Shown piece after piece: positions 14,964 to 32,000 of a stretch of 32,000 bases of DNA. The notes beneath the pieces were generated by a model. It had not been told where the DNA came from and did not search any database. It saw nothing but the letters and a program-made list of their open reading frames with translations. Each line of letters opens with the position of its first letter. Positions within the stretch are counted from its first letter, which is position 1. The translations under genes were made by a program, and so were the position numbers. This DNA comes from Halogeometricum borinquense DSM 11551 (GTDB lineage Archaea; Halobacteriota; Halobacteria; Halobacteriales; Haloferacaceae): positions 1,560,001 through 1,592,000 of the forward strand of contig NC_014729.1 in the NCBI RefSeq assembly GCF_000172995.2, written 5' to 3'.

Positions 14964-17549
14964 TTACTCAGTCGATGTGTCTTCGTCGGACGTATCTTCA
15001 TCTGACGTTTCGTCGTCTGGCGCTTCTTCGTCCGACGCTTCCTCGTCTACTTCGTCGGAACCGACGTTGTAAACATCGACACTGGCGACGTGGTCGCCTT
15101 CGTCCATGTCCATGACGGTAACGCCCATCGTGTTCCGGCCGACCGTCGAGATATCTTCGACCGGCGTCCGCAGGATCTGTCCGGACTCGCTCATCACGAA
15201 CAGGTGGTCGCCGTAGCCGACAGTCTCCATCGCACAGACCGGGCCGTTCCGGTCGTTCGTCTTGATGTCGATGAGACCCTTTCCGTTGCGAGATTGGCGG
15301 CGGTAGCGCTCGATATCCGAGCGCTTGCCGTAGCCGTTTTGGGTGACGGTGAGGACCCAGTTGTGTCGGTCCTCGTCCACGGCGGCGACGCCAACGAGTT
15401 CGTCGTCGCCTTCTAGTTTCATGCCGCGAACGCCGCGTGCGGAGCGACCCATCGCGCGAACGTCGCTTTCGTCGAATCGGATGGCCATCCCGTCCCGCGA
15501 GGCAAGCACTAAGTCGTGACTGCCGTCGGTCACCTCGACGTCGGCCAGTTCGTCGTCTTCGTCCAGTTTCGTGGCGATAATACCCGTGGTGAGGATGTTC
15601 TGGAACTTCTCGACGCTGGTGCGCTTGACGTACCCGTTCTGCGTCGCCATCGTGAGGTATTTGTCCGTCTCGTCCTCGATATCGGCGGTGTTGACGACAG
15701 CGGTTATCTCCTCGCCGTCGTCCAGTTCCAAGAGGTTGACCGCCGACTTCCCGCGGGCGGTCCGAGACATCTCCGGAATCTGGTACGTCTTCAGCTTGTA
15801 CACCTGTCCGTGGTTCGTGAAGTACAGCAGGTAATCGTGCGTACTCGCCACGAAGACGGAGGATACCCTGTCGCCCTCTTTCAGATCGGTGCCGATGATC
15901 CCCTTCCCGCCGCGGTGTTGCGCGCGGAACGTGTCGAGGGGCATCCGCTTGATGTAGTCATCCTCGGTGACGACGACGACGACATCCTCCTCGGCGATGA
16001 GGTCCTCGTGCGTCACCGTACCGGTGTCTTCGATGAACGAGGTGCGGCGTTCGTCGTCGTACTCGTCTTTGATCGCCGTCAGCTCGGACTTGATGACTGC
16101 GTCGAGTTCGTCGGGGTTGTTCAGAATCTCGTTCAGGCGGTCGATTCTGTCTTGGACCTCCTCGTATTCGTCCTTAATCTCCGCCGCCTCCATCGAGGTG
16201 AGCGAACCGAGTTGCATGGCGACGATGTGGTTGGCTTGATCCTCCGAGAAGTCGAAAGTGGGGAGGGGTTCGCCGTCCACTTCGACGGTCATCTCACCGC
16301 GGAGTGCCGCCTTCGCGTCGTCGCGGCTCTCGGAATTCCGAATGGTTTCCACCACGTCGTCGATATTTTCGAGGGCCTTCAGGCGGCCTTCGAGGATGTG
16401 CGCTCGGTCTTCGGCCTCCCCGAGTTCGTACTCGGAGCGCCGGCGCACGACCTCGCGGCGGTGGTCGAGATACTCTTTCAGCGTCTCCTTCAGGGTGAGA
16501 ACGCGCGGTTGCCCGTCCACGAGAGCGAGGTTGATGACGCCGAACGTCGATTCGAGGTGGTGTTCGAGCAGTTGGTTTTTCACCACGTCGGGGTTTGCGC
16601 CGCGCTTGAGTTCGACGACGACGCGGATACCGTCGCGGTCGGATTCGTCACGCAGGTCGCGGATACCCTCGATCTTTCCGTCGTTTACGTCGTCGGCGAT
16701 CCGCTCGATGAGGCGGGCTTTGTTCTCCTGATACGGGAGTTCGGTGATAACGATGTTGTCGCCGTCTTCGTCAACCTCGAACTCGGCGCGGACGCGGATT
16801 CTGCCGCGACCGGTCTTGTACGCTTTGTGAACGGCGTTCTTGCCGACAATGTTTGCGCCCGTCGGGAAGTCCGGTCCCTTCACGTACTCCATCAGGTCTT
16901 CGACCGTACAATCGGGATTCTCGATGAGGTGCGTCGTCGCATCGATGACCTCTCCGAGGTTGTGCGGCGGGATGTTCGTGGACATCCCAACAGCGATACC
17001 CGACGACCCGTTGACGAGGAGGTTCGGGAACGACGACGGAAGGACGACCGGTTCCTGTTTGCGGTCGTCGTAGTTGGATTGGAAATCAACCGTATCCTTG
17101 TCGATGTCTTCGAGGAGTTCCTCCGCGATGGGGGCCATCCGGGCCTCCGTATACCGCATCGCGGCCGGCGGATCCCCGTCTACGGACCCGAAGTTCCCCT
17201 GTCCGTCCACGAGAGGGTAGCGCATCGAGAAGTCCTGCGCCATGCGCGCGAGGGCGTCGTAGATGGCGGAGTCACCGTGCGGGTGGTAGTCACCCATCGT
17301 CTCGCCCACGATGGACGAGGACTTCCGGTGCGAGGAACGGGCGGAGACGCCCGCTTCGTTCATCGCATAGAGGATGCGACGGTGAACGGGTTTGAGTCCG
17401 TCGCGCACGTCGGGCAGGGCACGACCCGCAATGACCGACATCGCGTAGTCGATGTACGACTGCTCCATCTCCTGCTCGATACGTGCGTTTTGAACCTCTG
17501 CGGCGATGCCTGCGTCTTTTTGGAACTTGTCTGGTGCGTCAGAACTCAT
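14964..17549 (-). CDS. gyrA: DNA gyrase subunit A
   Basis: 861 aa with GDYHPHGD, the active-site Tyr motif [10 protein letters not shown], a C-terminal beta-pinwheel region and an acidic SDE/TSDED tail. The ATG directly follows the gyrB stop (TAG-ATG junction at 17547-17552). Confidence 0.97.
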
Positions 17550-19712
<2,163 letters not shown>

Positions 19713-22115
19713 ATGACCTCGTTCCAGTCGACGCTCGGCGAGGATGCGGGAATCGCAGAGGAGTTGGCCGAGAGCCAACGCGCGATTTCCATCGCCGAGT
19801 TCTTCGAGAAGAACAAGCACATGCTCGGGTTCGACTCGGGGGCACGAGGCTTGGTCACCGCCGTAAAGGAGGCGGTAGACAACGCCCTCGACGCAACCGA
19901 GGAGGCGGGAATCAAGCCCGACATCTCCGTCGAAATTCGTGAATCCGGAGACTACTACACGCTCATCGTCGAGGACAACGGTCCCGGCATCACGAAAGAG
20001 CAGATTCCCAAGGTGTTCGGGAAGCTCCTCTACGGCTCCCGGTTCCACGCACGCGAACAGTCCCGCGGTCAGCAGGGTATCGGTATCTCCGCGGCGGTTC
20101 TCTACTCGCAGCTCACGTCGGGCAAGCCCGCCAAAGTTACCTCCCGGACGCAGGGCGACAGTGCGGCACAGTACTTCGAGCTTATCATCGACACGGATAC
20201 GAACGAGCCGGAGATTCAGGTCGAACACGAACTCGCGCCGGGCGAGTCGGACCTCTCGCCGACGCACGGCACGCGCATCGAAGTGGAGATGGAGGCGAAC
20301 ATGCGCGCTCGCCAGCAACTCCACGACTACGTGAAACACACCGCCGTCGTCAACCCGCACGCCCGATTGGTCCTTGACGAACCCGGCCTCGACGAACCGC
20401 TCCGGTACGAGCGCGTCGAAGGCGCTGGTCTCCCCGACGAAACGGAGGAGATTCGCCCGCACCCGCACGGCGTCGAACTCGGGACGCTCATCAAGATGCT
20501 CTCCCGCACGGAGTCGTACTCCGTCTCCGGCTTCCTTCAAGAGGAGTTCACACGCGTCGGCGCGAAGACGGCCGACAAGATTCTGAACAACTTCCGCGAC
20601 CGACACTTCGGTCGCGAGATGGGCTGGAGCGTTCCGGACACTGACGAGACCGATCTCGACGCCGCCATCACCGACGCTGTCGCCAACAAGGGCGCTGACG
20701 CGACTGCGACGTTCGCCGAGCGCGTCGGCGACACGCTCAGAAACCGCGAACGGACGACGCACTTCGAACTCGGTGACATCGTTGACACAGTCGCCAACGA
20801 CATCGAATCGGAGTTCGACGTCACGTTCGGCGATACCGTCCGCGAGAACGCTGTCGAAGCGGCGTGGGACATTCTGGTGACGGACCGAACGGCGGATCTC
20901 TACGCTCTCGTTGACGATGCGACCAGTACCCGAAAGGACGACGAAACGGTCCACGGTCTCGCAGAACGGGTCGCCGAGAAGTTCGATTCCTCCGCGGCCC
21001 ATCGCGCGACGAAAAAGCAGGTCCGCGAGTACGTTGATCGGTCTGCGGACCTGCTGGTTTCCGACGACGTTTCGTTCGGTGACACGGCCCGCGAGAACGT
21101 CACCGAGTCGCTGTGGGAAGTCATGCGCACTGTTCCGGACGACGTACCGAAGGTACGGGACGTGGCCGACGACCGCGACACCGCTTCGGAACTTCTCGAA
21201 GGGATGCGCGAGGCGGACATTCTCGCGCCGCCGACGAACTGCCTGTCGCCGATCACCGACGAGTTGGTCGAGGCGGGCCTCCGGAAGGAGTACGACGCGG
21301 ACTTCTACGCTGCGGCGACGCGTGACGCGGAAGTCCACGGGGGCGACCCGTTCATCGTCGAGGCTGGCATCGCCTACGGCGGTGACCTCCAGTCGGAGGG
21401 GTCGGTCGATCTGCTCCGATTCGCAAACCGCGTCCCCCTCGTCTACCAGCGCGGTGCGTGTGCGACGACGGACGTCGTAAAGCGAATCGGCTGGCGAAAC
21501 TACGGGCTGGACCAGCCCGGCGGTTCGGGAATGCCGAAGGGGCCGGCGGTCATCATGGTTCACGTCGCCTCCACGAACGTGCCGTTCACCTCCGAGTCGA
21601 AGGACGCACTCGCTAACATTCCGGAGATCGAAGACGAGATCGAACTCGCCATCCGTGAGGCGTCGCGCGAACTGAAGTCCTATCTGAACAAGCGCCGGTC
21701 GATGCAGAAACGGCGGAAGAAACAGGACGTTCTCGGGCGCATCCTGCCGGAGATGGCCGACAAACTCGCAGAGGTGACAAAGCAGGACCGGCCCAACATC
21801 GATGGCGCACTCGCGCGCATCATGAACAACGTGAGCGTCGAACGCGAGGTTGCGGACGACACCGTGACGCTCGCGGTCGAGAATCACTCCGACCGGACCG
21901 AACAGCCGGATATCACCGATATCGTCACCGCGGAACCGACCGACGTACCGGACGACGCCACTGTCGTTGACTTAGACGGCGAGTGGTTCGTCAAGTGGAA
22001 CCCGTCGGTGTCGGCTGGAGAGACCGCCGAACTCACCTACACCGTAACGTCGGACGCCTCGTTCGACATCAACGTGGACGGCGTTGAAACTGAGAAGCTG
22101 ACCGTCAACACCTGA
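19713..22115 (+). CDS. top6B: DNA topoisomerase VI subunit B (long haloarchaeal form)
   Basis: Bergerat-fold motifs [16 protein letters not shown] and [10 protein letters not shown], transducer region with [11 protein letters not shown], and a C-terminal extension. Start at the ATG at 19713 ([11 protein letters not shown]) rather than the track start at 19638. Confidence 0.95.
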
Positions 22116-22117
22116 AC

Positions 22118-23212
22118 ATGAGCACGAATCAGAACGACGAACTCGCACAGGAACGACTTATCGACCTCGCCGTGGAGTTCTACGACCAGTTCGCCGAGGG
22201 CGATATCCCGCACATGGATATCCCGACGCGGACGAAGAGCAACATCGTCTTCGACGAGGATTCGAACGTGTGGGTGTACGGTGACCGGAAATCGACCCGC
22301 TCTGCCAACAGCGTTCGCGGCGCGCGAAAACTGCTGAAAGCGACGTACGCCATCGAATTCCTCGTCAACCAACTTGAGGAGGGCCGTTCGTCTACCCTGC
22401 GTGAGCTGTACTACCTCTCCGAATCGTGGGACACAGAGGAAGCGCAGTTCAACGACCAAGACGAGTCGAACCAACTCATCGAAGATCTCGAAATCGTCTC
22501 GAACGTCACCCGCGAGGACTTCCACATGCGACCGGAGGAGTCCGGTGCGACCCTCATGGGGCCGCTGGAACTCCGCGAGCAGACTCGTCGCGGCGAACGC
22601 GAGATTCACTGTCAGGAAGACGTTGGTGAAGGCGGCTACCAGATTCCGAACAACCCCGACACCATCGAGTTCTTAGATCACGACATCGATTTCGTTCTCT
22701 GCGTGGAGACGGGTGGTATGCGCGACCGCCTCATCGAAAACGGATTCGACGAGGAGTACGGCTGTCTCGTCGTCCATCTGAAGGGGCAACCAGCGCGGGC
22801 GACGCGCCGCATTACGAAACGTCTGCACGACGAACTCGACCTGCCGGTCATGGTCTTTACAGACGGTGACCCGTGGTCGTACCGCATCTACGGTTCCGTC
22901 GCCTACGGGTCCATCAAGTCCGCGCACCTCTCCGAGTATCTCGCCACGCCCGAGGCGCGCTTCGTCGGTATCCAACCGCAGGACATCGTTGACTACGACC
23001 TGCCGACCGATCCGCTCTCTGACTCGGACATAAACGCCCTCGAATCGGAACTCGAAGACCCGCGCTTCATGACCGATTACTGGGAAGAACAGATCGAACT
23101 ACAACTCGACATCGAGAAGAAAGCAGAACAGCAGGCGCTCGCCTCCCGCGGGCTGGACTTCGTGACCGACACCTATCTGCCGGAGCGGCTCGACACGATG
23201 GGTGTCATATAA
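22118..23212 (+). CDS. top6A: DNA topoisomerase VI subunit A (Spo11 homologue)
   Basis: Starts 2 nt after the top6B stop. Has the 5Y-CAP region with LRELYYLS (catalytic Tyr) and Toprim motifs CVETGGM and [12 protein letters not shown]. Confidence 0.95.
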
Positions 23213-23228
23213 CGGTCCGACGCAACAC

Positions 23229-24050
23229 TTACAGCGATTCCTCGCGCAGAAACCGCCCAACAACTCGGTTGAACGCTGTCGTCTGTTCGGTGGCGGCGGC
23301 GTGACCCGTCCCTCGGAGCAGTGCCAGCGTTGCGTCCGGAAGCATCTCCTTCGTCTCCCGCAGTAGTTCCGGCGGGAACAGCCGATCTTCGTCGCCGCCG
23401 ACAACCAGCGTCGGCATCCTTACGTCTCCTAATCGGTCGGTCCCGTCGTGTTCGAGACAGGCCCGGATGGACGTGACCACGTCTTCGGGGTACGGTGGCG
23501 TCAGTAGCGGGCCGAGCAGACACATCGCCGCCGGGTAGACATGGTGTCGCCATCCAGTGTACGACTCGCGCGCCGAAGACGCGTAGAGATTCCCCCACGC
23601 GCCCGTCTTCGCCCATGTTTCCCAGTCTTCGAGGACCGTTCGTCCGGCGTCACCGACGCGTGCCGCGGTAGACCCGAGGACGAGTCGTTCGACCAGTTCG
23701 GGGTAGTCGGCGGCGAGGTGTTGGGCAACGAAACCACCCATCGAGTAGCCGAGGACGTGCCCGCCGCCCAGTTCGTCAAGCGCCGTCGCCGCCGATCCGG
23801 CGATTTCGCGCGTCGTCGCATCCGGGTCGAGGGCTCGGGGGCGACGAACCGTCCACACCGTGAAGTCGTCCGTGAGGCCGCGATACGTCACGCGAGCAAG
23901 ATACTCCGCTGTCGCCTTCGTCGGGCCGCCGGCGAACGCGTCGCTGAGTCCGGGGAGAACGACTAACGTCTCGGGACCGTCTCCCGCCCGGTAGTAGGGG
24001 ATTCGTCGATCAAAGTGGCCGTAGTCGGCCGTCAGTGTGAGGCGGGTCAT
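23229..24050 (-). CDS. Alpha/beta-fold hydrolase
   Basis: Nucleophile elbow GYSMGG, with VLPGLSD and GGDEDRLFP blocks. ATG at 24050 (MTRLTLTADYG). The track start at 24080 is a TTG. Substrate unknown. Confidence 0.75.
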   Translation of the reverse strand: MTRLTLTADYGHFDRRIPYYRAGDGPETLVVLPGLSDAFAGGPTKATAEYLARVTYRGLTDDFTVWTVRRPRALDPDATTREIAGSAATALDELGGGHVLGYSMGGFVAQHLAADYPELVERLVLGSTAARVGDAGRTVLEDWETWAKTGAWGNLYASSARESYTGWRHHVYPAAMCLLGPLLTPPYPEDVVTSIRACLEHDGTDRLGDVRMPTLVVGGDEDRLFPPELLRETKEMLPDATLALLRGTGHAAATEQTTAFNRVVGRFLREESL

Positions 24051-24137
24051 CGTCCGATAATAGAGGAGCGGACGAGACAAAACGGTTGTCGCGGGACTGG
24101 TGTTTCTGACCGTGGCTACGGCGGGTTTCGAGGTGGC

Positions 24138-24854
24138 TCAGACCGCGTGGTCTTCGGGATCTTCGAGAACGACCGGAACGCCGCGGGCGGCAACGTCCGC
24201 CGCGAACGCCTCCGGATCAGCGCTCAGGAGGTCGATCGTGTTGTAGTGAATTGGGAGGACCAAGCCTGGGTTCAACGCCGCAGCGAGGTCGGCCGCCTCG
24301 TGGCGGTCCATCACGATACTCCCGCCGATGTTAGCGAGGAAGAGATCCACTGACAACTGCTCGAAGCCAGCGAGCACGTCGCTGTCGCCGGGCCAGAACA
24401 CCTTGATTCCGTCCACCGACAGGAGGAAGCCGCACCCGAATCCGGGCGGATGAACGAGGCTGCCGTCGTCTCGGGTGTGCGGGCCGTCGGCTTCGTTGTA
24501 GGCGGCGAGTGTCCACAGGTCCACCGGACCGGCGGTCAGGTGTTCTTCCTCGCCGACACGGATGACCTCGTACGGGAGGTCTTCGACGGCCGCTACGTCC
24601 CGGTCGATGTTGGATGCGTCTACTCCCTCGAACACGACGACAGTGGCGTCTTCCTTGGCGACGGATCGAATCGCGTCGCTGTCGTAGTGGTGGTCGTGAG
24701 TGACACAGACGAGGTCGCCGTCGCGGGCGTAGTAGTCGTCTAACACGCCGTACCGACCCGGGTCGAGATAGACGACGTAGCCCGCTTCGGACTCGATTCG
24801 GACAGTCGCGTATCCTAACCACGCAACGTCGAGATTGCGGAAAGAGACGGTCAT
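24138..24854 (-). CDS. Metallo-beta-lactamase-fold metal-dependent hydrolase
   Basis: LVCVTHDHHYDSD (HxHxDH-like) motif. ATG at 24854 (MTVSFRNLDVAWLG), supported by a TATA-like box about 26 nt upstream. Confidence 0.75.
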   Translation of the reverse strand: MTVSFRNLDVAWLGYATVRIESEAGYVVYLDPGRYGVLDDYYARDGDLVCVTHDHHYDSDAIRSVAKEDATVVVFEGVDASNIDRDVAAVEDLPYEVIRVGEEEHLTAGPVDLWTLAAYNEADGPHTRDDGSLVHPPGFGCGFLLSVDGIKVFWPGDSDVLAGFEQLSVDLFLANIGGSIVMDRHEAADLAAALNPGLVLPIHYNTIDLLSADPEAFAADVAARGVPVVLEDPEDHAV

Positions 24855-24875
24855 ACTCGTTGGTAGCGGACCGAC

Positions 24876-24884
24876 GGAATAACG
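24876..24884 (-). promoter_or_regulatory. Candidate TATA box (cgttattcc on the minus strand) for the MBL-fold hydrolase
   Basis: Centred 26 nt upstream of the ATG at 24854. Confidence 0.35.
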
Positions 24885-24958
24885 CGTTTCGACTCGGCCG
24901 GCTGTTTGCGCGTTCGACAGCCACGCCGCAGGCCGCCGGTCACACAACTGGCCGTCTG

Positions 24959-26377
24959 TCAGTCGTCTGCGGGACCGAGTTCGTTCGTCGGCGCGAGGAT
25001 CGACGCGCCCTCGAACTCCATCGCAACGTCATCGCGGACGCCGAGGAGATCCAATATCGTCGGTGCGACCTGACGCATATCGATGTCGCCGTCCAGTGAT
25101 AGTGAGGGAGCGGCGGGACCGCCGACCCCGAAAACGGGTGTCGTCTCGGAATCGACGCGTCCGTGCGACCCGCAGACTTTCGTTGGGTCCGTCGAGACGA
25201 ACCCGCTTTCCCCGAGGAATAACTCGCAGGGGTCGTATCCGGGTTTCTCGTGGATATCCACGCTGTCGGCGTACGGCGGCATCGCCTCCGTCTCGTCTTC
25301 GTGCCACCAGTAGTAGGCGAACCACGCGTCGGCGTCCGCGAGAAGGACCAACTCGCCCGCATTTTCGTGGTCGATGCCGTAGGCCGCTTGGTCGTCGCCG
25401 TCGAGGATACGCTCGATGCCGGGACGGTCTTCGAGCGCTTCTCGCGCCCGTTCGACGGCGTCATGGTCGCAGTAGACATGCGCGACTTGGTGGTCTGCAA
25501 CGGCGAACGCCGCCGAGGCCGCGAGATCTGGAATCGCCCCGCCCTCGGCGTCCTGCGTCTGCAGCAGCCCCGCATCGCGGAGCGCGCGATTCGGGAACAC
25601 CGGCGTCGATACCTCGTGGAAGCCGTACTCGCTGACGACGACGACGGCCGTTTCCGACCATCGATCTGTCTTGCGGAGTGCATCAATGTACTCGCCGACG
25701 AGTTCGTCAACCTCCGAGAGCGCCGCCTCAAACTCGTCGGAGTTCGGGCCGTGACTCTGCCCTGTGTAGTCAAGATGCGGAAGGTACACCCAGAGCATGT
25801 CAGGATCGTAGCGCTCGGTCGCCTCGCGGGCCGCCGACAGAATCCACGTGCTACTCTCGGCGTTCGCTGCCGGACCCCAGTAGTTGTGAAGCGGGAAATG
25901 ACCGTACTCCTCGCGGAGTTCGTCGTAAAAGTCGTCTGGGTTCGTCCAGCAGTTCATCTCGATGAGACCGTTGTTCTCGTCCTCGATGGGTTTCGGCGTC
26001 ACCGCCACGTCTGCCGACGTGCCGTAGAGATGTTGGAAAAACAGCGCGCCAGTCGTGAGTTCGCAGTCGCTTTGCAGTTCCCAGATCCGCCGCCGGTCGC
26101 CGCTGTCTCGGCCCCACAGTTCCACCGTGTCCGTTTTGCGGTCGTACTCTGCGTTCGATACGTCGCCGTGCGTCGCGGGTGAGCGTCCGGTCGAAAGCGT
26201 CGTCTGCGCGGGAATCGTCACCGCCGGAAACGGTGGGACGAGTCCCGTCGTCGCGCCGTCATCGAACAGTTCGGAGAGGTGCGGCATCGACTCAGAAGTA
26301 ACGTGGTCGGGTTGGAGACCGACCACGTCGAGGACGATGACCCGTTCTGCCGTGGAGTCGCTTGCGTGTTCAGTCAT
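24959..26377 (-). CDS. Alkaline-phosphatase superfamily enzyme (type I phosphodiesterase / nucleotide pyrophosphatase family; EboF-like)
   Basis: 472 aa with VIVLDVVGL (metal Asp), the nucleophile block FPAVTIPAQTTLSTG, YLPHLDYTGQSHGP and CGSHGR. The ATG overlaps the stop of the upstream cyclase gene (ATGA at 26374-26377). Confidence 0.8.
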   Translation of the reverse strand: MTEHASDSTAERVIVLDVVGLQPDHVTSESMPHLSELFDDGATTGLVPPFPAVTIPAQTTLSTGRSPATHGDVSNAEYDRKTDTVELWGRDSGDRRRIWELQSDCELTTGALFFQHLYGTSADVAVTPKPIEDENNGLIEMNCWTNPDDFYDELREEYGHFPLHNYWGPAANAESSTWILSAAREATERYDPDMLWVYLPHLDYTGQSHGPNSDEFEAALSEVDELVGEYIDALRKTDRWSETAVVVVSEYGFHEVSTPVFPNRALRDAGLLQTQDAEGGAIPDLAASAAFAVADHQVAHVYCDHDAVERAREALEDRPGIERILDGDDQAAYGIDHENAGELVLLADADAWFAYYWWHEDETEAMPPYADSVDIHEKPGYDPCELFLGESGFVSTDPTKVCGSHGRVDSETTPVFGVGGPAAPSLSLDGDIDMRQVAPTILDLLGVRDDVAMEFEGASILAPTNELGPADD

Positions 26378-27672
26378 CGTTTGGGCTCCGTTCCGGGGGC
26401 CGAATCAGACTCTGAGGTGTCCGAATCACTCCCCGCTCCGTCCGTCCGAAGCGGTGTGAGCGGCTCTCTGTCGTCGGTATCGAGGTGGTCGTTCACGTAG
26501 GATTCGAGCATAGCGAACTGCCGGGAGAGGTCGTGTTCGCTCACGTCCATCGGCTCTTTGAAGAACGACGAGAGGTGGGTCTGGACGCCGCCTTCGTCGT
26601 GGTCGTCGGCGTAGGCAACGAGTCGGACGAGGTCCAAGACGAGCGGTGCGGCGAGCGTGGAATCTGCACCCTGCCACGTGAACTGCAGTGACATCGTCGT
26701 CCCCATGAACCCCCGGAAGTGGACGTGGTCCCACGCCGTCTTCCAGTCTCCGAGCGAAGGTGTGTAGTCGATGCGGACGCGGTTGTGCATGTTCGAGCCG
26801 AGAATGTTCGAGAGGACGCCGCCCTTACTCTGGAGTTTCCCGGCCTTGTTCTCGTCGTCCTCCAACACTTTGCCGTCGCCGTTGCCGAGGATGTTGAAGC
26901 CGTCCCACGACAGCACATCGAGGTTGCGTCCGGCGAACATCGGCCCGAGCGCGGACTTTAGCAGTGTCTCGCCGGTCTTGGCGTCGCGTCCGGCGTGCGG
27001 GACGTTCTTCGTTTCGGCTAACTCCCGCAACCCGCCGAGGTCGCTCCCCGTGGAGGGCGTGAAGTTGACGTACGGGTGGCCGTCGTCGAGGGCGGCGTAG
27101 GCGTAGAGCGAACTCGCGGGTAAGTCGGCGTCGTCGGCTTCGACTGCCTCTTCGAAGGCAGCCAGCGTCTCGTACCGGTCGGGATCTGTTACGGGTGGTT
27201 CCGAGGAGGCGAGGTTGACAACTACGAGGCGATCAACGCCGGTTTCGGCGACAAAATCGCTGTAATCGGAGCGAATCTGTTCGACTATCTCGCTCACAGT
27301 GTGGTTGCTGTCGAGGGTGTCGCCATCGGCCAGGGAGACGGCGCTTCCGCAGTTCTGTGCGGTGCCCGTCTCGATTCTGTCGTCTATCTCGCGGAGGTCG
27401 TCGGAGACGATTTCGAGCGTCTCTCGATCGACGATATTCGAGTCGGAGAGTTCGGTTGCAGTGTGGATGAGCGGTCGGTCGGCAATATCGTGACCGCCGA
27501 AGACGAACTCACTGACTGCGGGTAAATCGAGTAACGTGCAGGGTTCACGTGCTGTTACCATTCCGGTTTCGTCGGTTGTCCCCCGTGCAATGCCGCGCGC
27601 CCCAGCGATAGCCGTGGTTGCGACGTTGCCGCGTGCGCCGACGAACCAGACCCCCGTTCGCGTTCGCGTCAT
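26374..27672 (-). CDS. Inositol-3-phosphate synthase family protein (NAD-dependent sugar-phosphate cyclase; functional analogue of EboD)
   Basis: 432 aa with the N-terminal Rossmann VWFVGARGNVATT and family blocks GRDAKTGETLLKSALGPMF, NILGNGDGKVL, LQSKGGVLSNILG and DSTLAAPLVLDLVRL. It also has an acidic Ser/Asp-rich C-terminal tail. Confidence 0.85.
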   Translation of the reverse strand: MTRTRTGVWFVGARGNVATTAIAGARGIARGTTDETGMVTAREPCTLLDLPAVSEFVFGGHDIADRPLIHTATELSDSNIVDRETLEIVSDDLREIDDRIETGTAQNCGSAVSLADGDTLDSNHTVSEIVEQIRSDYSDFVAETGVDRLVVVNLASSEPPVTDPDRYETLAAFEEAVEADDADLPASSLYAYAALDDGHPYVNFTPSTGSDLGGLRELAETKNVPHAGRDAKTGETLLKSALGPMFAGRNLDVLSWDGFNILGNGDGKVLEDDENKAGKLQSKGGVLSNILGSNMHNRVRIDYTPSLGDWKTAWDHVHFRGFMGTTMSLQFTWQGADSTLAAPLVLDLVRLVAYADDHDEGGVQTHLSSFFKEPMDVSEHDLSRQFAMLESYVNDHLDTDDREPLTPLRTDGAGSDSDTSESDSAPGTEPKR

Positions 27673-27861
27673 ATCTTGTTCGGGGGACGGAACGCGGTTA
27701 GTTATGTGTCGGCTTCAGTGCAAATGGATGCATTTCGATCCCCGTCTGTCGGTTCGAATAGCCTGTTAAATGGTTTCTACCGGTGATTCTGCACAAACTT
27801 TCTCTGTCCCTAAACCTGTAGGATGTTGATAACAAAGCCCGATTAGTCCCGACTGTGCCGC
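27673..27861. promoter_or_regulatory. Divergent promoter spacer of the six-gene cluster
   Basis: 189-bp AT-enriched spacer. cataactaacc (minus strand, 27697-27707) lies about 30 nt before the ATG at 27672, and gttgataaca (27825-27834) about 32 nt before the ATG at 27862. A small aaatg/cattt inverted repeat sits at 27722-27735. Confidence 0.4.
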
Positions 27862-28716
27862 ATGCGTCTGATCGACTCACACGCGCACATGACCTCGCGG
27901 ACCACGGACGATTACCGCGAGATGCGGCGGTCGGGCATCGAGTGCGTCATCGAACCATCCTTTTGGTCGGGTTCGGACAAACTGTATCCCGAATCGTTCT
28001 TCGATTACTTCGAGCACATCATCGACTTCGAGACCGAACGCGCCGACCGCGTCGCCGGGATGGAGCACTACGTCACGGTCTCGATCAATCCGAAGGAGGC
28101 AGTTGACCGCGAGATGTCCGAAGCCGTCATCGACCGTCTGCCGGAGTATCTCGAACGCGACCGCGTCGTCGGTGTCGGCGAGATCGGGTTCAACCTCCAG
28201 ACCGACGAGGAAGAGTGGGCGTTCCGCGAGCAACTCCGCCTCGCAGAAGAACACGAACAACCCGTCATCATCCACCTTCCGCACACGGAGAAGCCGAAGG
28301 GTGCGGTCCGGACGGTAGAGATCATCGAGGAGATGGGCGTCACGCAAGAGCGAATCATCATCGACCACAACGAACCGGAGACGATGGAGACGACGGCGGC
28401 GACGGACTGTTGGCTCGGGTTCACGCTCTACCCCGGTAAGATATCTATCGAGGAGGTCATGCCGCTTCTCGAAGCGTACGGCACCGACAGACGTATCATC
28501 AACTCCTCGGCAGACTGGGATGATTCGGACCCACTCGCCGTCCCGAAAGCCCGCGACGCGATGATCGACGCTGGGTGGGACCGCGATACGGTGCGGAAGC
28601 TTCTGTTCGAGAATCCCTTAGCGTTCTTCTCGCAGTCGCCGCATTTCGACTACGCGGACGCCGTTGCGGCGGAGTCCGATGGCGAAAGCGTCCCCCAGGG
28701 TGCAGAGGCCGAGTAA
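27862..28716 (+). CDS. TatD-related metal-dependent hydrolase (amidohydrolase fold; EboB-like)
   Basis: N-terminal IDSHAH (HxH) motif, GEIGF and VIIHLPH blocks, 284 aa. First gene of a tightly packed four-gene unit. Confidence 0.8.
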   Translation: MRLIDSHAHMTSRTTDDYREMRRSGIECVIEPSFWSGSDKLYPESFFDYFEHIIDFETERADRVAGMEHYVTVSINPKEAVDREMSEAVIDRLPEYLERDRVVGVGEIGFNLQTDEEEWAFREQLRLAEEHEQPVIIHLPHTEKPKGAVRTVEIIEEMGVTQERIIIDHNEPETMETTAATDCWLGFTLYPGKISIEEVMPLLEAYGTDRRIINSSADWDDSDPLAVPKARDAMIDAGWDRDTVRKLLFENPLAFFSQSPHFDYADAVAAESDGESVPQGAEAE

Positions 28717-28719
28717 CCG

Positions 28720-29556
28720 ATGTCGCTTCAGTTCGGTTTCTCGATGAACGCCTTTCGGGAGTACTCGACTGTCGAGGCCATCGACGCCGTCGCGGACGCC
28801 GGGTACGACGGCATCGAACTCCTGTTCGATCAACCATTCCTCTATCCACCCGCGGCCACGGACGAGGAGTACGACGAGGTGCGCGCCGCGCTCGAACGGA
28901 CCGGTCTCGACATCAGCAACTGTAACGCGTTCATGCTGACGGCCATCGAGGATTTCCACCACCCCTCGTTCATCGAAGTAGACGAAAACTACCGTCGTCG
29001 TCGCGTGGAGTACACGCTTGATTCGCTCGATGCCGCGGCCGAACTCGGCTGTGACCACATCTCCATCGAACCCGGTGGCCCACTTCCCGATGGAAAGTCC
29101 CGCGAGTGGGCGATGGAGACGTTCGTCGGCGGCCTCGAAGAACTCGCCGTCAAGGCCGAGAACGTGGGCGTGGATGTGTTGGTCGAACCCGAACCGGACC
29201 TTCTCATCGAGACTTCGATGCAGTTTCTCGACGTGATCGAACGCGTTGACTCCGACCGAATCGCCTGTAACTTCGACGCCGGCCACCTGTACTGCGTGGG
29301 CGAGGACCCCGCGGAACTGGTCGAGACGCTTTCGCCGTACACGAAGCACTACCATCTCGAAGACATCCCCGAGGTCCGTGAACACGACCACACGCAACTC
29401 GGTGACGGCGCGATGAATATCGACGCCTTCCTCGAAGCGGTCGAGGATTCAGGCTACGACGGGTACATCACGGTCGAACTCTACCCGTATCAGGAGACGG
29501 CAGCCGAAACAGCACGAGGGGCGATGGACTACCTCCGCGACCACGGGTGGGCCTGA
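28720..29556 (+). CDS. Xylose-isomerase-like TIM-barrel protein (sugar phosphate isomerase/epimerase family; EboE-like)
   Basis: 278 aa with GYDGIELL, VLVEPEPDLLIE, NFDAGHLYCVGED, HLEDI and ITVELYPY blocks typical of AP-endonuclease-2/xylose-isomerase-like barrels. Starts 3 nt after the TatD-like stop. Confidence 0.8.
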   Translation: MSLQFGFSMNAFREYSTVEAIDAVADAGYDGIELLFDQPFLYPPAATDEEYDEVRAALERTGLDISNCNAFMLTAIEDFHHPSFIEVDENYRRRRVEYTLDSLDAAAELGCDHISIEPGGPLPDGKSREWAMETFVGGLEELAVKAENVGVDVLVEPEPDLLIETSMQFLDVIERVDSDRIACNFDAGHLYCVGEDPAELVETLSPYTKHYHLEDIPEVREHDHTQLGDGAMNIDAFLEAVEDSGYDGYITVELYPYQETAAETARGAMDYLRDHGWA

Positions 29557-29559
29557 GCG

Positions 29560-30495
29560 ATGGCAACCGGCGTCGGGGACGCGCTCGGCGTCGAGTCCGT
29601 CCGGCGAGTCGCTACCGACTACGCCGAACTTGTCAGACTTCCGAATGTCTTCACCGCCCCACCGGACGTTATCGCTGGCGTCGCTCTCGCCGTCGCGCTC
29701 GGCGCGACAGTTTCGGTACCAACTATCGTCGGTCTCTGTCTGGCATCGGCGCTCATCTACGCCGCGGGAACGACGCTGAACGACGTTGCCGACGTTGACG
29801 AAGACGCAAAAGAGCGCCCGGATCGACCGATTCCGTCTGGCCGCGTCGGGCGAAGCGAAGCGCTCTCGGTCGGCATCATCCTCCTCGTCGGCGGTGTCGT
29901 CGTCGCCACGGTCGTTGGCGGATTAGGACCCGGTTTGACTGCCGTGGCTCTCGCCCTCGCCGTTGCGCTCTATGACGGTCTTCTCAAGGGTACTCCAGCC
30001 GGCTTTTTTGCGATGGGATCAGCCCGCGGACTCAACGTCGCGCTCGGCCTGTCAATCGCCGGTGTCGCCGCGTTCGACGGGCTGGCGCTTCTGTTTCCGG
30101 CGTCCGTCGTCGTTTACGTTGCGGCGTTGACGCGGATGGCTGAGGCGGAGACGGGCGGCGGTGGGGACGGGTCCGCCGTCGCTCTCACCGGCGCAGGGGC
30201 GACGCTAGCGGCCATGGTTGTTGCCGTCGTCGTCACCGTCCGTGGGACGCCCACCGCCGGTCTCGCCGCTACTCTCGTCGCCGCCGGCTTTCTCGCGTGG
30301 GACTGGCGGGCGCTCGGTCCGGCGATAGCAGATCCCGTTCCGTCGAACGTCGGACCTGCTGTCGGTACCTGCGTCCTCGGAATTGTCCTCCTCGATGCCG
30401 CCGTCGCCGTCATTGCAGGGCCGACGTTCGTTCTCGCCGCAGCGGCGTTCGCCATTCCGGCAACGACGCTCTCCAGATACTTCGACGTGAACTAA
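29560..30495 (+). CDS. UbiA-superfamily integral-membrane prenyltransferase (EboC-like)
   Basis: 311 aa and very hydrophobic (about 8-9 TM helices). First Asp-rich motif NDVADVDEDAKERPDRPIPSGR at 29779 onward. Starts 3 nt after the preceding stop. Confidence 0.85.
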   Translation: MATGVGDALGVESVRRVATDYAELVRLPNVFTAPPDVIAGVALAVALGATVSVPTIVGLCLASALIYAAGTTLNDVADVDEDAKERPDRPIPSGRVGRSEALSVGIILLVGGVVVATVVGGLGPGLTAVALALAVALYDGLLKGTPAGFFAMGSARGLNVALGLSIAGVAAFDGLALLFPASVVVYVAALTRMAEAETGGGGDGSAVALTGAGATLAAMVVAVVVTVRGTPTAGLAATLVAAGFLAWDWRALGPAIADPVPSNVGPAVGTCVLGIVLLDAAVAVIAGPTFVLAAAAFAIPATTLSRYFDVN

Positions 30496-30497
30496 CC

Positions 30498-31343
30498 ATG
30501 AAACTCGCATTTTCGACGAACGCGTACACGAACGACACGCTCCCCGAAGCCGTCCGGCGAATCGCCGCCCACGGTTACGAGGGAGTCGAATTACTCGGCG
30601 ATACACCGCACGCGTACTTCCCCGAGTTCGGTGCGGACGATGCGGCCGCACTCGCCGATGCCCTCACAGAGACGGATCTCGCCGTCTCGAACATCAACGC
30701 CAACACGGCTACGGGATACTACGACGATGCGCCGCCGTCGTCCTTTTTCGAACCGAGCGTCATCAATCCGGATCCGGATCTGCGCGCGTGGCGTGTCGAG
30801 TACATCAAACGTGCCATCGACTTGGCTACCTCGACGGGTGCGCCAGCGGTCTGTCTCGCCACCGGTCGTCCCCTGCCGGGAACGTTGCCCGATGAAGCGT
30901 ACCAGCTCTTGCGTGACTCGCTGCACGACATCCTCGACTACGCCGAACCCCGCGGCGTGGACGTGGGGATCGAGTTCGAACCCGAACTGCTCATCGAATG
31001 CACCGACGAAGTGCTGACGCTCATTGATGATGTGGGCCGCGACAACCTCGGCGTCAATCTCGACATCGGCCACGCAGCCGTCTACGGCGAAGACCTACGC
31101 GAGAGCATCGAACAGAGCGCGGGCCACATCACCGGCGTCCACCTCGAAGATATCGCGGGCGGTATCCGCGGCAAACACTATCACCTCGTCCCCGGCGACG
31201 GCGACCTCGATTTCGATGTGGTGTTCGACGCCCTCGACAGCATCGGCTACGACGGATTCGTCACGTTAGAACTGTACACTTACCCCGACCGTCCGGACGA
31301 GGCGGCGGCGCGTGCGTTCGAGGCGTTAGCGGGCTACTTCTGA
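30498..31343 (+). CDS. Second xylose-isomerase-like TIM-barrel protein (paralogue of 28720-29556)
   Basis: ATG at 30498 (MKLAFSTNAY...), 2 nt after the UbiA stop. Blocks GYEGVELL, IEFEPELLIE, NLDIGHAAVYGED, HLEDI and VTLELYTY align with the first barrel. Confidence 0.8.
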   Translation: MKLAFSTNAYTNDTLPEAVRRIAAHGYEGVELLGDTPHAYFPEFGADDAAALADALTETDLAVSNINANTATGYYDDAPPSSFFEPSVINPDPDLRAWRVEYIKRAIDLATSTGAPAVCLATGRPLPGTLPDEAYQLLRDSLHDILDYAEPRGVDVGIEFEPELLIECTDEVLTLIDDVGRDNLGVNLDIGHAAVYGEDLRESIEQSAGHITGVHLEDIAGGIRGKHYHLVPGDGDLDFDVVFDALDSIGYDGFVTLELYTYPDRPDEAAARAFEALAGYF

Positions 31344-31374: not shown

Positions 31375-32000
31375 TCATTGCGACTCGGCCAACCGCTCGA
31401 TTCGATCCAGCGAGTCGGCATCGTCCGGCGTCTTGTCCTCTCGGACGGCGATAAAGCGCGGGAACCGAAGCGCGTACCCCGATGAGTACGTCGGCGAGCG
31501 TTGTATCTCTTCGTAGCCGACCTCGAAAACGACCGAGGGATTCAGTTCGACCGTCTGTCCGTCCTCGCTGACGATTTCTGGTTCCAAGAGATCGGACAAC
31601 TCGGCCAGTTCCTCGTCGGTGATGCCCGTCGCTACCTTCCCGATAGTGGCGTAGTCGCCGTCGCCGCTCTCGTCGCGCGCGGAGAGGAGGAACGTTCCAA
31701 GGTGGTTCGCGCGGCGGCCCTCTCCCCACTCTGCACCCGTCACGACGAGGTCAACCGTCTCTACGTCGGGCTTTCGTTTCAGCCAGTTCTTCCCGCGATT
31801 TCCGGGCGAGTACGTCGAATCGGGGTTTTTCAGCATGATCCCTTCGTGGCCGGCGTCAAGCGACGCCTCCTCGAAGGCGGCTATCTCGTCGGCGTCCTCG
31901 GAGACGAGCAAGTCCGAGACGGCGTTGGTGTCCGCCAGCACCTCCGCGAGTCGGGCGTGTCGTTCCGTCACCGGCGCATCGAGCAAGTCCTCGCTGTCGG
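31375..32000 (-). CDS. ligA: ATP-dependent DNA ligase, C-terminal part (gene continues past the window end)
   Basis: Adenylation-domain end and OB fold: HEGIMLKNPDSTYSPGNRGKNWLKRKP, DLVVTGAEWGEGRR and motif VI LRFPRFIAVREDK. The frame stays open to the window edge. Confidence 0.85.
   Translation of the reverse strand, partial: DSEDLLDAPVTERHARLAEVLADTNAVSDLLVSEDADEIAAFEEASLDAGHEGIMLKNPDSTYSPGNRGKNWLKRKPDVETVDLVVTGAEWGEGRRANHLGTFLLSARDESGDGDYATIGKVATGITDEELAELSDLLEPEIVSEDGQTVELNPSVVFEVGYEEIQRSPTYSSGYALRFPRFIAVREDKTPDDADSLDRIERLAESQ

Follow-up and report, generated by a model that had tools for sequence, protein, structure and literature searches.

A reduced ebo-family cluster with an archaeal-type MIPS and two small TIM barrels in Halogeometricum borinquense

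Six genes at positions 24959-31343 of a 32,000-nt stretch of the haloarchaeon Halogeometricum borinquense DSM 11551 (contig NC_014729.1, positions 1,560,001-1,592,000; hereafter, the window) constitute, as judged by sequence comparison, an accessory and co-inherited biosynthetic ebo-family cluster, of a reduced form that Bacillota and Desulfobacterota also have. We consider it probable, at roughly 0.6, that the cluster encodes an ebo-type pathway whose product is a small aromatic molecule, cyclitol-derived and prenylated. Long an orphan cluster, the ebo genes have only lately been linked with a molecule, thallusin, an algal morphogen active at picomolar levels; what archaea carry is a pared-down form of these genes that lacks EboE and is shared with plasmids of the Bacillus cereus group and with anaerobic bacteria. 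The cluster consists of two divergent units, which include genes for an inositol-3-phosphate synthase (MIPS), a nucleotide pyrophosphatase/phosphodiesterase (NPP) and two barrel proteins, TIM1 and TIM2:

24959-26377, minus strand: EboF-type NPP-family hydrolase gene, second gene of the minus unit (472 amino acids, aa; Pfam Phosphodiest, 184.8 bits)
26374-27672, minus strand: archaeal-type MIPS gene, first gene of the minus unit (432 aa; Pfam NAD_binding_5, 171 bits, and Inos-1-P_synth, 115 bits)
27673-27861, no strand: divergent spacer shared by the two units (189 bp; 49% GC)
27862-28716, plus strand: EboB-type TatD-like metal-dependent hydrolase gene, first gene of the plus unit (284 aa; Pfam TatD_DNase, 62.6 bits)
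28720-29556, plus strand: small xylose-isomerase-like barrel, TIM1 (278 aa; Pfam AP_endonuc_2, 162.4 bits)
29560-30495, plus strand: EboC-type UbiA-superfamily membrane prenyltransferase gene (311 aa; Pfam UbiA, 70.3 bits)
30498-31343, plus strand: small xylose-isomerase-like barrel, TIM2 (281 aa from the ATG; Pfam AP_endonuc_2, 156.1 bits)

A preliminary description of this DNA, made from its letters alone, had the layout right in every respect: six open reading frames (ORFs) in two divergent units, an AT-enriched 189-bp spacer, an overlap of the MIPS stop with the start of the EboF-type gene (ATGA, 26374-26377), and gaps of 3, 3 and 2 nt within the plus unit. Pfam likewise agrees with its family call for each of the six proteins. 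For TIM2 we took the ATG start, as the mechanical ORF begins at an upstream GTG (30297) that lies inside the UbiA gene.

The cluster enzymes and their ebo counterparts

We assigned the cluster to the ebo family because its TatD-like, NPP and UbiA proteins are orthologous to EboB, EboF and EboC, respectively, and carry family-specific motifs. The TatD-like protein is 42% identical over 267 aa to EboB of Aureibacter and 41-48% identical to the cluster TatD proteins of Streptomyces, Bacillus, Sporomusa and Desulfobulbaceae, and it keeps the EboB motifs D-x-H-x-H-M-x-SR, GEIG, H-(L/T)-P-H, IDHN and SADW. The NPP shares 35% identity with Aureibacter EboF (248 bits) and 40% and 38% with the cluster NPPs of Streptomyces and Bacillus, respectively, with the EboF-family motifs PAVT (which holds the Thr nucleophile), HLDY, SEYG and GSHG all retained.

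One site of the NPP varied with the cyclase of the cluster. The first metal-ligand position (D17; window 26327-26329) is Asp in all MIPS-type clusters compared (five haloarchaea, Bacillus and Streptomyces), whereas the EboD-type clusters compared (Aureibacter, Deinococcus, Mycetohabitans, Azospirillum and Salipiger) all have Asn, Ile or Leu there. This difference, seen in a small sample that is not phylogeny-corrected, may reflect whether the cyclitol intermediate bears a phosphate.

The top NCBIfam matches of the UbiA protein were EboC (170.5 bits) and the SCO3242 family (157.8 bits), with any other UbiA model at 69 bits or less. The equivalog cutoffs of these models are 250 and 260 bits, respectively; however, while haloarchaeal UbiAs score 159-191 bits on the EboC model, those of canonical ebo operons score lower (Deinococcus, 107 bits; Azospirillum, 89 bits), so that missing the EboC cutoff does not rule out membership. 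The protein is 29% identical to Aureibacter EboC and 36% identical to a B. cereus protein named EboC by PGAP. In a neighbor-joining tree the haloarchaeal UbiA clade joined Aureibacter and Bacillus EboC (support ~90). As our trees were small (12-15 sequences, 100 bootstraps) and weak at the deep nodes (supports 19-47), we relied on them only for placing this clade among the ebo-linked UbiAs and apart from DGGGP synthase and ChlG. Membership in the SCO3242 family is disfavored, both by the score of 157.8 bits against a cutoff of 260 and by the position of the protein on the EboC branch.

The first Asp-rich motif of the UbiA protein (N74-D75-x2-D78-x3-D82) is intact, and Tyr56 and Arg145 of the EboC enzyme UbiA-297 have their counterparts in Y67 and R156; the second Asp-rich motif is degenerate, with T-x-M-A-x-x-E in its place, as in all ebo-linked UbiAs. 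Model scores for the characterized clades were all far under their cutoffs (DGGGP synthase-type, 59-69 bits; heme O synthase, 44; ChlG, 43; UbiA, 31), and no MenA model was matched in the NCBIfam scan of the protein. We therefore rejected DGGGP synthase, MenA and heme O synthase as its identity, on the basis of the model scores, the second Asp-rich motif and, for DGGGP synthase, the tree; the protein falls outside these clades, in keeping with the preliminary description.

In EboD's place the cluster carries what its sequence identifies as a catalytically intact MIPS of the archaeal type. The protein is 45% identical to the MIPS of Archaeoglobus fulgidus (PDB 1U1I; 295 bits), 43% identical to that of an ebo-type cluster in Streptomyces camelliae, and 47% identical to that of Desulfobulbaceae. 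All nine of the A. fulgidus positions that we checked are kept (D225, N255, L257, D261, K274, K278, K306, D332 and K367); these are catalytic residues according to mutagenesis and structure papers on the A. fulgidus enzyme. With no EboD in the window, the earlier claim that a MIPS stands where the EboD-type cyclase would be is upheld. The swap is not new, having already been described for Actinomycetota (bioRxiv 10.64898/2026.05.21.724671).

We regard the MIPS as part of the cluster because its active site is intact, it is translationally coupled to the EboF gene, and MIPS replaces EboD in Streptomyces and Nonomuraea too. A role as the organism's own inositol-phosphate synthase, serving inositol lipids or solutes and having unrelated genes of sugar metabolism (such as an inositol catabolic set) as chance neighbors, is highly improbable. 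Pfeiffer and Dyall-Smith list the Haloferax volcanii MIPS, HVO_B0213, as isofunctional with the A. fulgidus enzyme in an inositol head-group context (PMC8305020), and both the canonical active site and the resemblance of the barrels to Iol enzymes would suit such a role. However, a close MIPS homolog is found in only 32 of 166 haloarchaea (PMC8305020, supplement S7b) and the MIPS stop overlaps the NPP gene start, for which reasons we, like the preliminary description, do not consider the gene a housekeeping one. In addition, inositol catabolism has no use for a membrane prenyltransferase, and the synteny of the six genes from haloarchaea to Bacillota and Desulfobacterota comes close to refuting a chance association. 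The listing of HVO_B0213 as a lipid head-group enzyme is likely a misreading that the cluster context corrects.

TIM1 and TIM2 are paralogs with 36% identity. TIM1 is 49%, 51% and 48% identical to the barrel that follows TatD (TIMb) in B. cereus, Sporomusa and Desulfobulbaceae, respectively, and TIM2 is 46%, 45% and 45% identical to the first barrel (TIMa) of the same clusters, while the crossed pairs reach 33-39%; their sequences thus make them old paralogs, each with a closer ortholog in bacteria. The best solved relatives were MJ1311, Art22, IolI and YgbM for TIM1, and MJ1311, IolI and ketose 3-epimerases for TIM2; for MJ1311, Art22 and AF_1765, a search of the literature yielded nothing of use.

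The preliminary description of the cluster as ebo-like holds for EboB, EboC and EboF, whose orthologs are present, but not for EboA, EboD and EboE, all of which are absent from the H. borinquense cluster and the 32-kb window. Its proposal that one barrel is the EboE equivalent fails: on the TIM_EboE model (NF035939; cutoff 250 bits) TIM1 reaches 22.7 bits and TIM2 17.3 bits, BLASTP against EboE gave at most 44 bits, and the barrels have 278 and 281 aa compared with ~390-400 aa in EboE. In tblastn searches of the window, Aureibacter EboD found no match, and EboA (two divergent sequences), EboD and EboE queries found no further match; EboA also has no room in the cluster, as the gaps measure only 2-3 nt and the spacer 189 bp. 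When EboE was searched by tblastn against 72,556 plasmids, 47 records matched, none of them haloarchaeal and none from Bacillus. Extra TIM-barrel genes near the Natronococcus and Halocatena clusters were considered as candidates for EboE and rejected, having no BLAST match to EboE and weak AP_endonuc_2 matches.

Recurrence of the block in archaea and bacteria

The block was found in 10 haloarchaeal genomes of nine genera, with unrelated flanks, and bears out the co-localization that the preliminary description had set as a test; two of the 10 lack the MIPS gene. Besides H. borinquense, carriers are H. limi, Halococcus saccharolyticus, Natrinema salinisoli, Haloferax volcanii (plasmid pHV3), Halobaculum salinum, Halocatena salina, Natronococcus sp. 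CG52, in which all six genes run in one strand direction, and Haloarcula amylovorans and Haladaptatus pallidirubidus, which keep five genes and have lost MIPS. Since the flanks vary between haloarchaea, the six genes are an inherited unit. Named UbiA homologs with 48-57% identity occur in at least 10 genera. A contig search with the UbiA protein alone returned only H. limi, and the wider context comes from protein searches, contig look-ups and a plasmid collection.

The same six genes also occur in bacteria, contrary to the earlier view of the cluster as an archaeal invention. A megaplasmid of B. cereus carries TIM-TatD-TIM-EboC-NPP-MIPS as a single operon with one-to-one orthologs of all six proteins (36-49% identity), the same operon is present in Brevibacillus brevis and Sporomusa ovata, and in Desulfobulbaceae the order is MIPS-x-TIM-TatD-TIM-UbiA-NPP, with a similar set in an uncultured Desulfobacterium. 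Between the haloarchaeal and bacterial modules, identities are 41-48% for TatD, 38-40% for NPP, 37-47% for MIPS and 30-36% for UbiA, and EboA, EboD and EboE are likewise absent from the Bacillota and Desulfobacterota clusters. The block thus recurs in haloarchaea, Bacillota and Desulfobacterota, an arrangement far beyond chance. By its gene content the H. borinquense locus is a member of a third, reduced ebo architecture, "MIPS plus two small barrels", which is widespread and is not described in the literature that we searched; for the bacterial six-gene operons we found pipeline annotation only and no paper.

Several genes accompany the module in its bacterial and haloarchaeal carriers. A GSDH/DUF7133-type beta-propeller gene ("PQQ-dependent sugar dehydrogenase") adjoins it or lies near it in B. 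cereus (L006 4368-5789), Sporomusa (L019 5803-7173), Brevibacillus (L025 11379-13067), Natronococcus (L021 13923-14786) and H. volcanii (L005 1-4074), where the protein is large and combines DUF7133 (287 bits) with plastocyanin-like and CBM domains; such a gene is lacking from the H. borinquense window. On H. volcanii pHV3 (L005 13192-14847) and the Streptomyces plasmid (L007 18139-19647), multicopper oxidase genes are a few genes away from the cluster, and a fragment of one lies near the Sporomusa cluster (L019 13644-14105). The preprint (10.64898/2026.05.21.724671) assigns no enzyme to the oxidative conversion of saccharoquinoline into thallusin, so these oxidases are candidates for that step. 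Both Desulfobacterota clusters (L018 6156-7343; L026 4948-6144) encode a protein of ~395 aa, 62% identical between them, with a signal-peptide-like N-terminus; we rejected this squalene-cyclase-repeat-like protein as a terpene cyclase in view of its weak match (Pfam, 25.8 bits; SHC, 26.6 bits) and that N-terminus. One of the two clusters opens with a TonB-dependent receptor gene and the other, that of Desulfobulbaceae, with a DedA/VTT gene.

Parts of the module were also seen in the ammonia-oxidizing Nitrososphaeraceae (L016, L017 9834-11400; L024 7137-8837), whose TatD and TIM1-like proteins are 42-43%, and NPP 39%, identical to the haloarchaeal ones. The contigs read TatD-TIM ... NPP-TIM, with a remnant resembling an insertion sequence or transposase at the expected UbiA site in one lineage, or have only the TatD-TIM pair; none has an adjoining MIPS. 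Of the two MIPS-less haloarchaea, Haloarcula amylovorans keeps a 41-aa MIPS remnant (L004 7071-7193), whereas Haladaptatus pallidirubidus has no remnant but has a Gfo/Idh/MocA oxidoreductase and an extra barrel upstream (L020 3086-5295). These clusters hint at entry into the pathway from free inositol.

On H. volcanii pHV3 the cluster corresponds to HVO_B0208-B0214, a numbering anchored by the published tags HVO_B0212, a zinc-binding micro-protein (PMC11241148), and HVO_B0213, the MIPS (PMC8305020); of the other genes, HVO_B0208 and HVO_B0210 encode the barrels, HVO_B0209 UbiA, HVO_B0211 TatD and HVO_B0214 the NPP. Genetics is feasible in this tractable model archaeon. A literature search by locus tag returned data only for HVO_B0212 and, as annotation only, HVO_B0213, and no expression or phenotype data for HVO_B0208-B0214. 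The RefSeq start of HVO_B0211 (TatD) truncates the conserved D-x-H-x-H metal motif (L005 7240-7261), and an in-frame upstream start gives MSIPIIDPHMHM; the gene has probably been annotated from a start seven codons downstream of the true one. HVO_B0212, a C(P)XCG protein of 69 aa, is encoded in the divergent spacer (L005 6870-7079; PMC11241148), and the corresponding spacer of Halococcus saccharolyticus (L002 6904-7290) carries a bacterial-type globin gene.

In H. borinquense the spacer has a GC content of 49%, compared with 61% for the window, and ranks in the lowest 1% among all 189-bp windows. When it was aligned with that of H. limi, one block was kept 24-34 nt upstream of the MIPS ATG (27696-27706) and two were kept 21-52 nt upstream of the TatD ATG (27810-27820 and 27829-27841). 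We infer that these blocks are TATA/BRE-like elements of leaderless transcripts, and the two units would probably be transcribed divergently as leaderless mRNAs from the AT-rich spacer. The GC content at third codon positions of the six genes (0.71-0.80) is like that of adjacent housekeeping genes and so gives no sign of recent import.

The surroundings of the cluster in the window are housekeeping genes: gyrB/gyrA, top6B/top6A, a pair of hydrolase genes and a DNA ligase gene. The genes for DNA topology, gyrA, gyrB, top6B and top6A (window 14964-23212), are followed by a metallo-beta-lactamase (MBL)-fold hydrolase gene, and DNA ligase lies on the opposite side (31375-32000). The Natrinema cluster (L003 11817-16570) also has this MBL-fold gene and the topoisomerase VI pair as neighbors, but on the opposite side, which suggests an old chromosomal site with inversion of the block. 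The mechanical ORF of top6B opens at a TTG (window 19638-19712), and its translation points to an internal ATG at ~19713 (MTSFQS...) as the likely start. Two genes, for the MBL-fold hydrolase (24138-24947) and an alpha/beta-hydrolase (23229-24080), share the strand of the NPP gene and lie downstream of it; we rejected them as members of the minus unit because they are not beside the cluster in Halococcus, Haloferax, Halobaculum or Halocatena, and because the Natrinema MBL gene is on the other side.

Proposed pathway and alternative products

An isoprenoid-cyclitol product was proposed for the ebo cluster by Yurchenko et al. 2016 (PMC5133447), and Nostoc ebo mutants fail at exporting the scytonemin monomer (Klicki et al. 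2018, PMC6282210). The preliminary description called the product of these genes undefined, a view that has been overtaken: the EboD product has been known since 2024, and a preprint of May 2026 (10.64898/2026.05.21.724671) links ebo genes to thallusin and saccharoquinoline. According to that preprint, ebo genes track thallusin production, deletion of eboB, eboC, eboE or eboF abolishes thallusin, and the thallusin ring is built from a cyclitol and aspartate. In Actinomycetota, ino1-3 replace eboD, and a route through Ino1 is proposed; ebo clusters in two archaeal phyla were counted but not described (preprint 10.64898/2026.05.21.724671). EboC homologs farnesylate 8-hydroxyquinoline-2-carboxylate and 6,7,8-trihydroxyquinaldate (PMC9235831; preprint 10.64898/2026.05.21.724671). 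One of them, UbiA-297, farnesylates hydroxyquinoline carboxylates and gave no product with phenols or catechols, and its Tyr56 and Arg145 are proposed to bind the aromatic acceptor (PMC9235831).

Our analysis established gene identities, orthology and residue conservation, and from these every chemical step is inferred. MIPS would convert glucose-6-phosphate to inositol-3-phosphate, in place of the EboD route from mannose-6-phosphate. TIM1 and TIM2, metal-dependent barrels that are like inosose isomerases, dehydratases and epimerases, may then act with the EboB- and EboF-type enzymes to dephosphorylate and isomerize or dehydrate the cyclitol to a polyhydroxylated ring precursor, possibly condensed to a hydroxyquinoline carboxylate, as in the model for thallusin. 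The EboC-type UbiA would prenylate this ring at the membrane, and the product would be of the saccharoquinoline/thallusin class or a related prenylated aromatic, and not a bulk membrane lipid. We consider such a metabolite likelier than a lipid because EboC homologs farnesylate hydroxyquinolines and because ebo genes are tied to thallusin and saccharoquinoline.

Some observations weigh against a product of this kind. EboE, reported to be essential for thallusin in Stieleria (preprint 10.64898/2026.05.21.724671), was found neither in the window nor, in the plasmid search, in any haloarchaeal or Bacillus record, and the window lacks EboA too, so that the pathway may end in something other than thallusin or saccharoquinoline; EboA is also lacking in most Planctomycetota producers (preprint 10.64898/2026.05.21.724671), and eboE lies scattered in Planctomycetota. 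The cluster has no oxidoreductase to turn inositol phosphate into inosose, and the occurrence of the module in strict anaerobes (Sporomusa and Desulfobulbaceae) makes a poor fit to an oxidatively rearranged product such as thallusin. Further, the product chemistry of the reduced architecture is argued by analogy with other ebo clusters, and the link to thallusin rests on one 2026 preprint.

A tentative alternative, to which we give distinctly less weight, is that, for want of EboA and EboE, the pathway builds no pyridine ring from aspartate, and that the barrels instead dehydrate and aromatize the inositol ring to a polyhydroxybenzene, which UbiA would prenylate to a new quinol- or quinone-like compound. 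EboA, EboD and EboE are consistently absent, and two paralogous barrels consistently present, in haloarchaea, Bacillota and Desulfobacterota, and relatives of the barrels include the inosose isomerase IolI, an IolE-type dehydratase and the dehydroshikimate dehydratases AsbF and QuiC. The presence of the module in anaerobes, the multicopper oxidase genes near it (Haloferax and Streptomyces, with the Sporomusa fragment) and the GSDH/DUF7133 genes adjoining or near it in four bacterial and haloarchaeal lineages would also be in keeping with such chemistry. However, UbiA-297 was inactive on phenols and catechols (PMC9235831), and EboB and EboF, essential for thallusin, are retained, suggesting chemistry in common with the thallusin pathway. 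Put more broadly, and just as doubtful, the reduced module might be a separate ancient pathway of haloarchaea, Bacillota, Negativicutes, Desulfobacterota and, in part, ammonia-oxidizing archaea, whose product is a prenylated inositol-derived aromatic (a quinol, quinone or metal-binding lipid) and not thallusin.

Somewhat less likely again is direct prenylation of the cyclitol phosphate by UbiA, to a polyprenyl-cyclitol-phosphate that would be a minor membrane lipid or a lipid carrier for metabolite export, a reading of the preliminary description whose carrier idea is also that of Klicki et al. The MIPS product is phosphorylated, and two of the cluster enzymes are phosphate- or metal-dependent hydrolases; conservation of the module is high, with barrels 45-51% identical between haloarchaea and bacteria, and the variety of its ecologically unrelated carriers, strict anaerobes included, is more like that of a cellular function than of a niche signal. 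The Desulfobulbaceae cluster opens with a gene of the DedA/VTT family, which is linked to polyprenyl-phosphate recycling. The failure of scytonemin monomer export in Nostoc ebo mutants (PMC6282210) also accords with a carrier. Against this, EboC homologs of three phyla farnesylate hydroxyquinolines (PMC9235831; preprint 10.64898/2026.05.21.724671), a finding with which the proposed membrane lipid conflicts, and the haloarchaeal UbiA retains the equivalents of Tyr56 and Arg145. The cluster is also patchy (~20% of haloarchaea) and often plasmid-borne, hence accessory; no prenyl-cyclitol is reported in haloarchaeal lipidomes, and an inositol lipid only tentatively if at all (PMC10704169); and two haloarchaea retain the other five genes after the loss of MIPS.

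A prenylated aromatic metabolite of the ebo type thus remains our preferred product. If the two barrels replace EboE and EboA, this would (i) narrow what those two proteins do, and (ii) make candidate producers of an algal morphogen out of haloarchaea, which live in the same brines as the green alga Dunaliella; alternatively, the module may make a different prenylated cyclitol-derived compound, and a separate inositol-derived pathway, if true, would mean a new class of isoprenoid-cyclitol metabolites in archaea. While the orphan status of the ebo genes has largely been resolved by others, the EboE-less architecture and its spread over two domains leave a testable question.

Relation to known systems

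The archaeal inositol phospholipid pathway (MIPS and archaetidylinositol-phosphate synthase) employs the same kind of MIPS, but it uses a CDP-alcohol phosphatidyltransferase, of which the cluster has none, and the MIPS here is accessory and ebo-linked. In the BE-40644 pathway of Actinoplanes (discussed in PMC5133447 and the preprint), which leads to a cyclitol-derived meroterpenoid, the product of a sugar-phosphate cyclase is similarly modified, farnesylated by a UbiA-family enzyme and cyclized. The likeness is one of pathway logic; the cyclase is a different one, an EEVS acting on sedoheptulose-7-phosphate, and the UbiA is not of the EboC type.

Clusters of Streptomyces and Nonomuraea combine MIPS, a SCO3242-type UbiA, one small barrel, EboA, TatD, EboE and NPP, and are of the ebo/ino type of Actinomycetota known from Saccharomonospora sp. 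CNQ-490 (preprint 10.64898/2026.05.21.724671). Those of the Streptomyces camelliae plasmid (L007) and Nonomuraea (L015) resemble the haloarchaeal cluster in having a MIPS (43% identical) for EboD and a small xylose-isomerase-like barrel, and in their TatD (41-42% identical) and NPP (40%), but differ in retaining EboA and EboE, in having one adjoining small barrel and in a UbiA on the SCO3242 branch. For the isomerase- or dehydratase-like Ino2 and Ino3 of Saccharomonospora, the small barrel of the Streptomyces and Nonomuraea clusters served as a stand-in, and with it TIM1 and TIM2 share 28-31% identity (86-100 bits).

With the canonical eboABCDEF cluster (PMC5133447, PMC6282210; Aureibacter pAT1, L008), the H. 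borinquense cluster shares orthologs of EboB, EboC and EboF, tight packing, and a cyclitol-forming enzyme beside a UbiA prenyltransferase. The canonical clusters of Aureibacter, Deinococcus, Mycetohabitans, Salipiger and Azospirillum all have EboD and EboE, whereas here EboA, the dehydroquinate-synthase-like EboD and EboE give way to MIPS and two paralogous barrels of ~280 aa, and the single operon gives way to two divergent units in an archaeal host.

The six-gene module of Bacillota and Desulfobacterota has the same gene set, both barrel paralogs and the order TatD-TIM1-UbiA. It differs in forming single operons, while most haloarchaea have MIPS-NPP split off divergently, in the GSDH/DUF7133 beta-propeller gene that often adjoins it or lies near it and, in Desulfobacterota, in the extra secreted squalene-cyclase-repeat-like protein.

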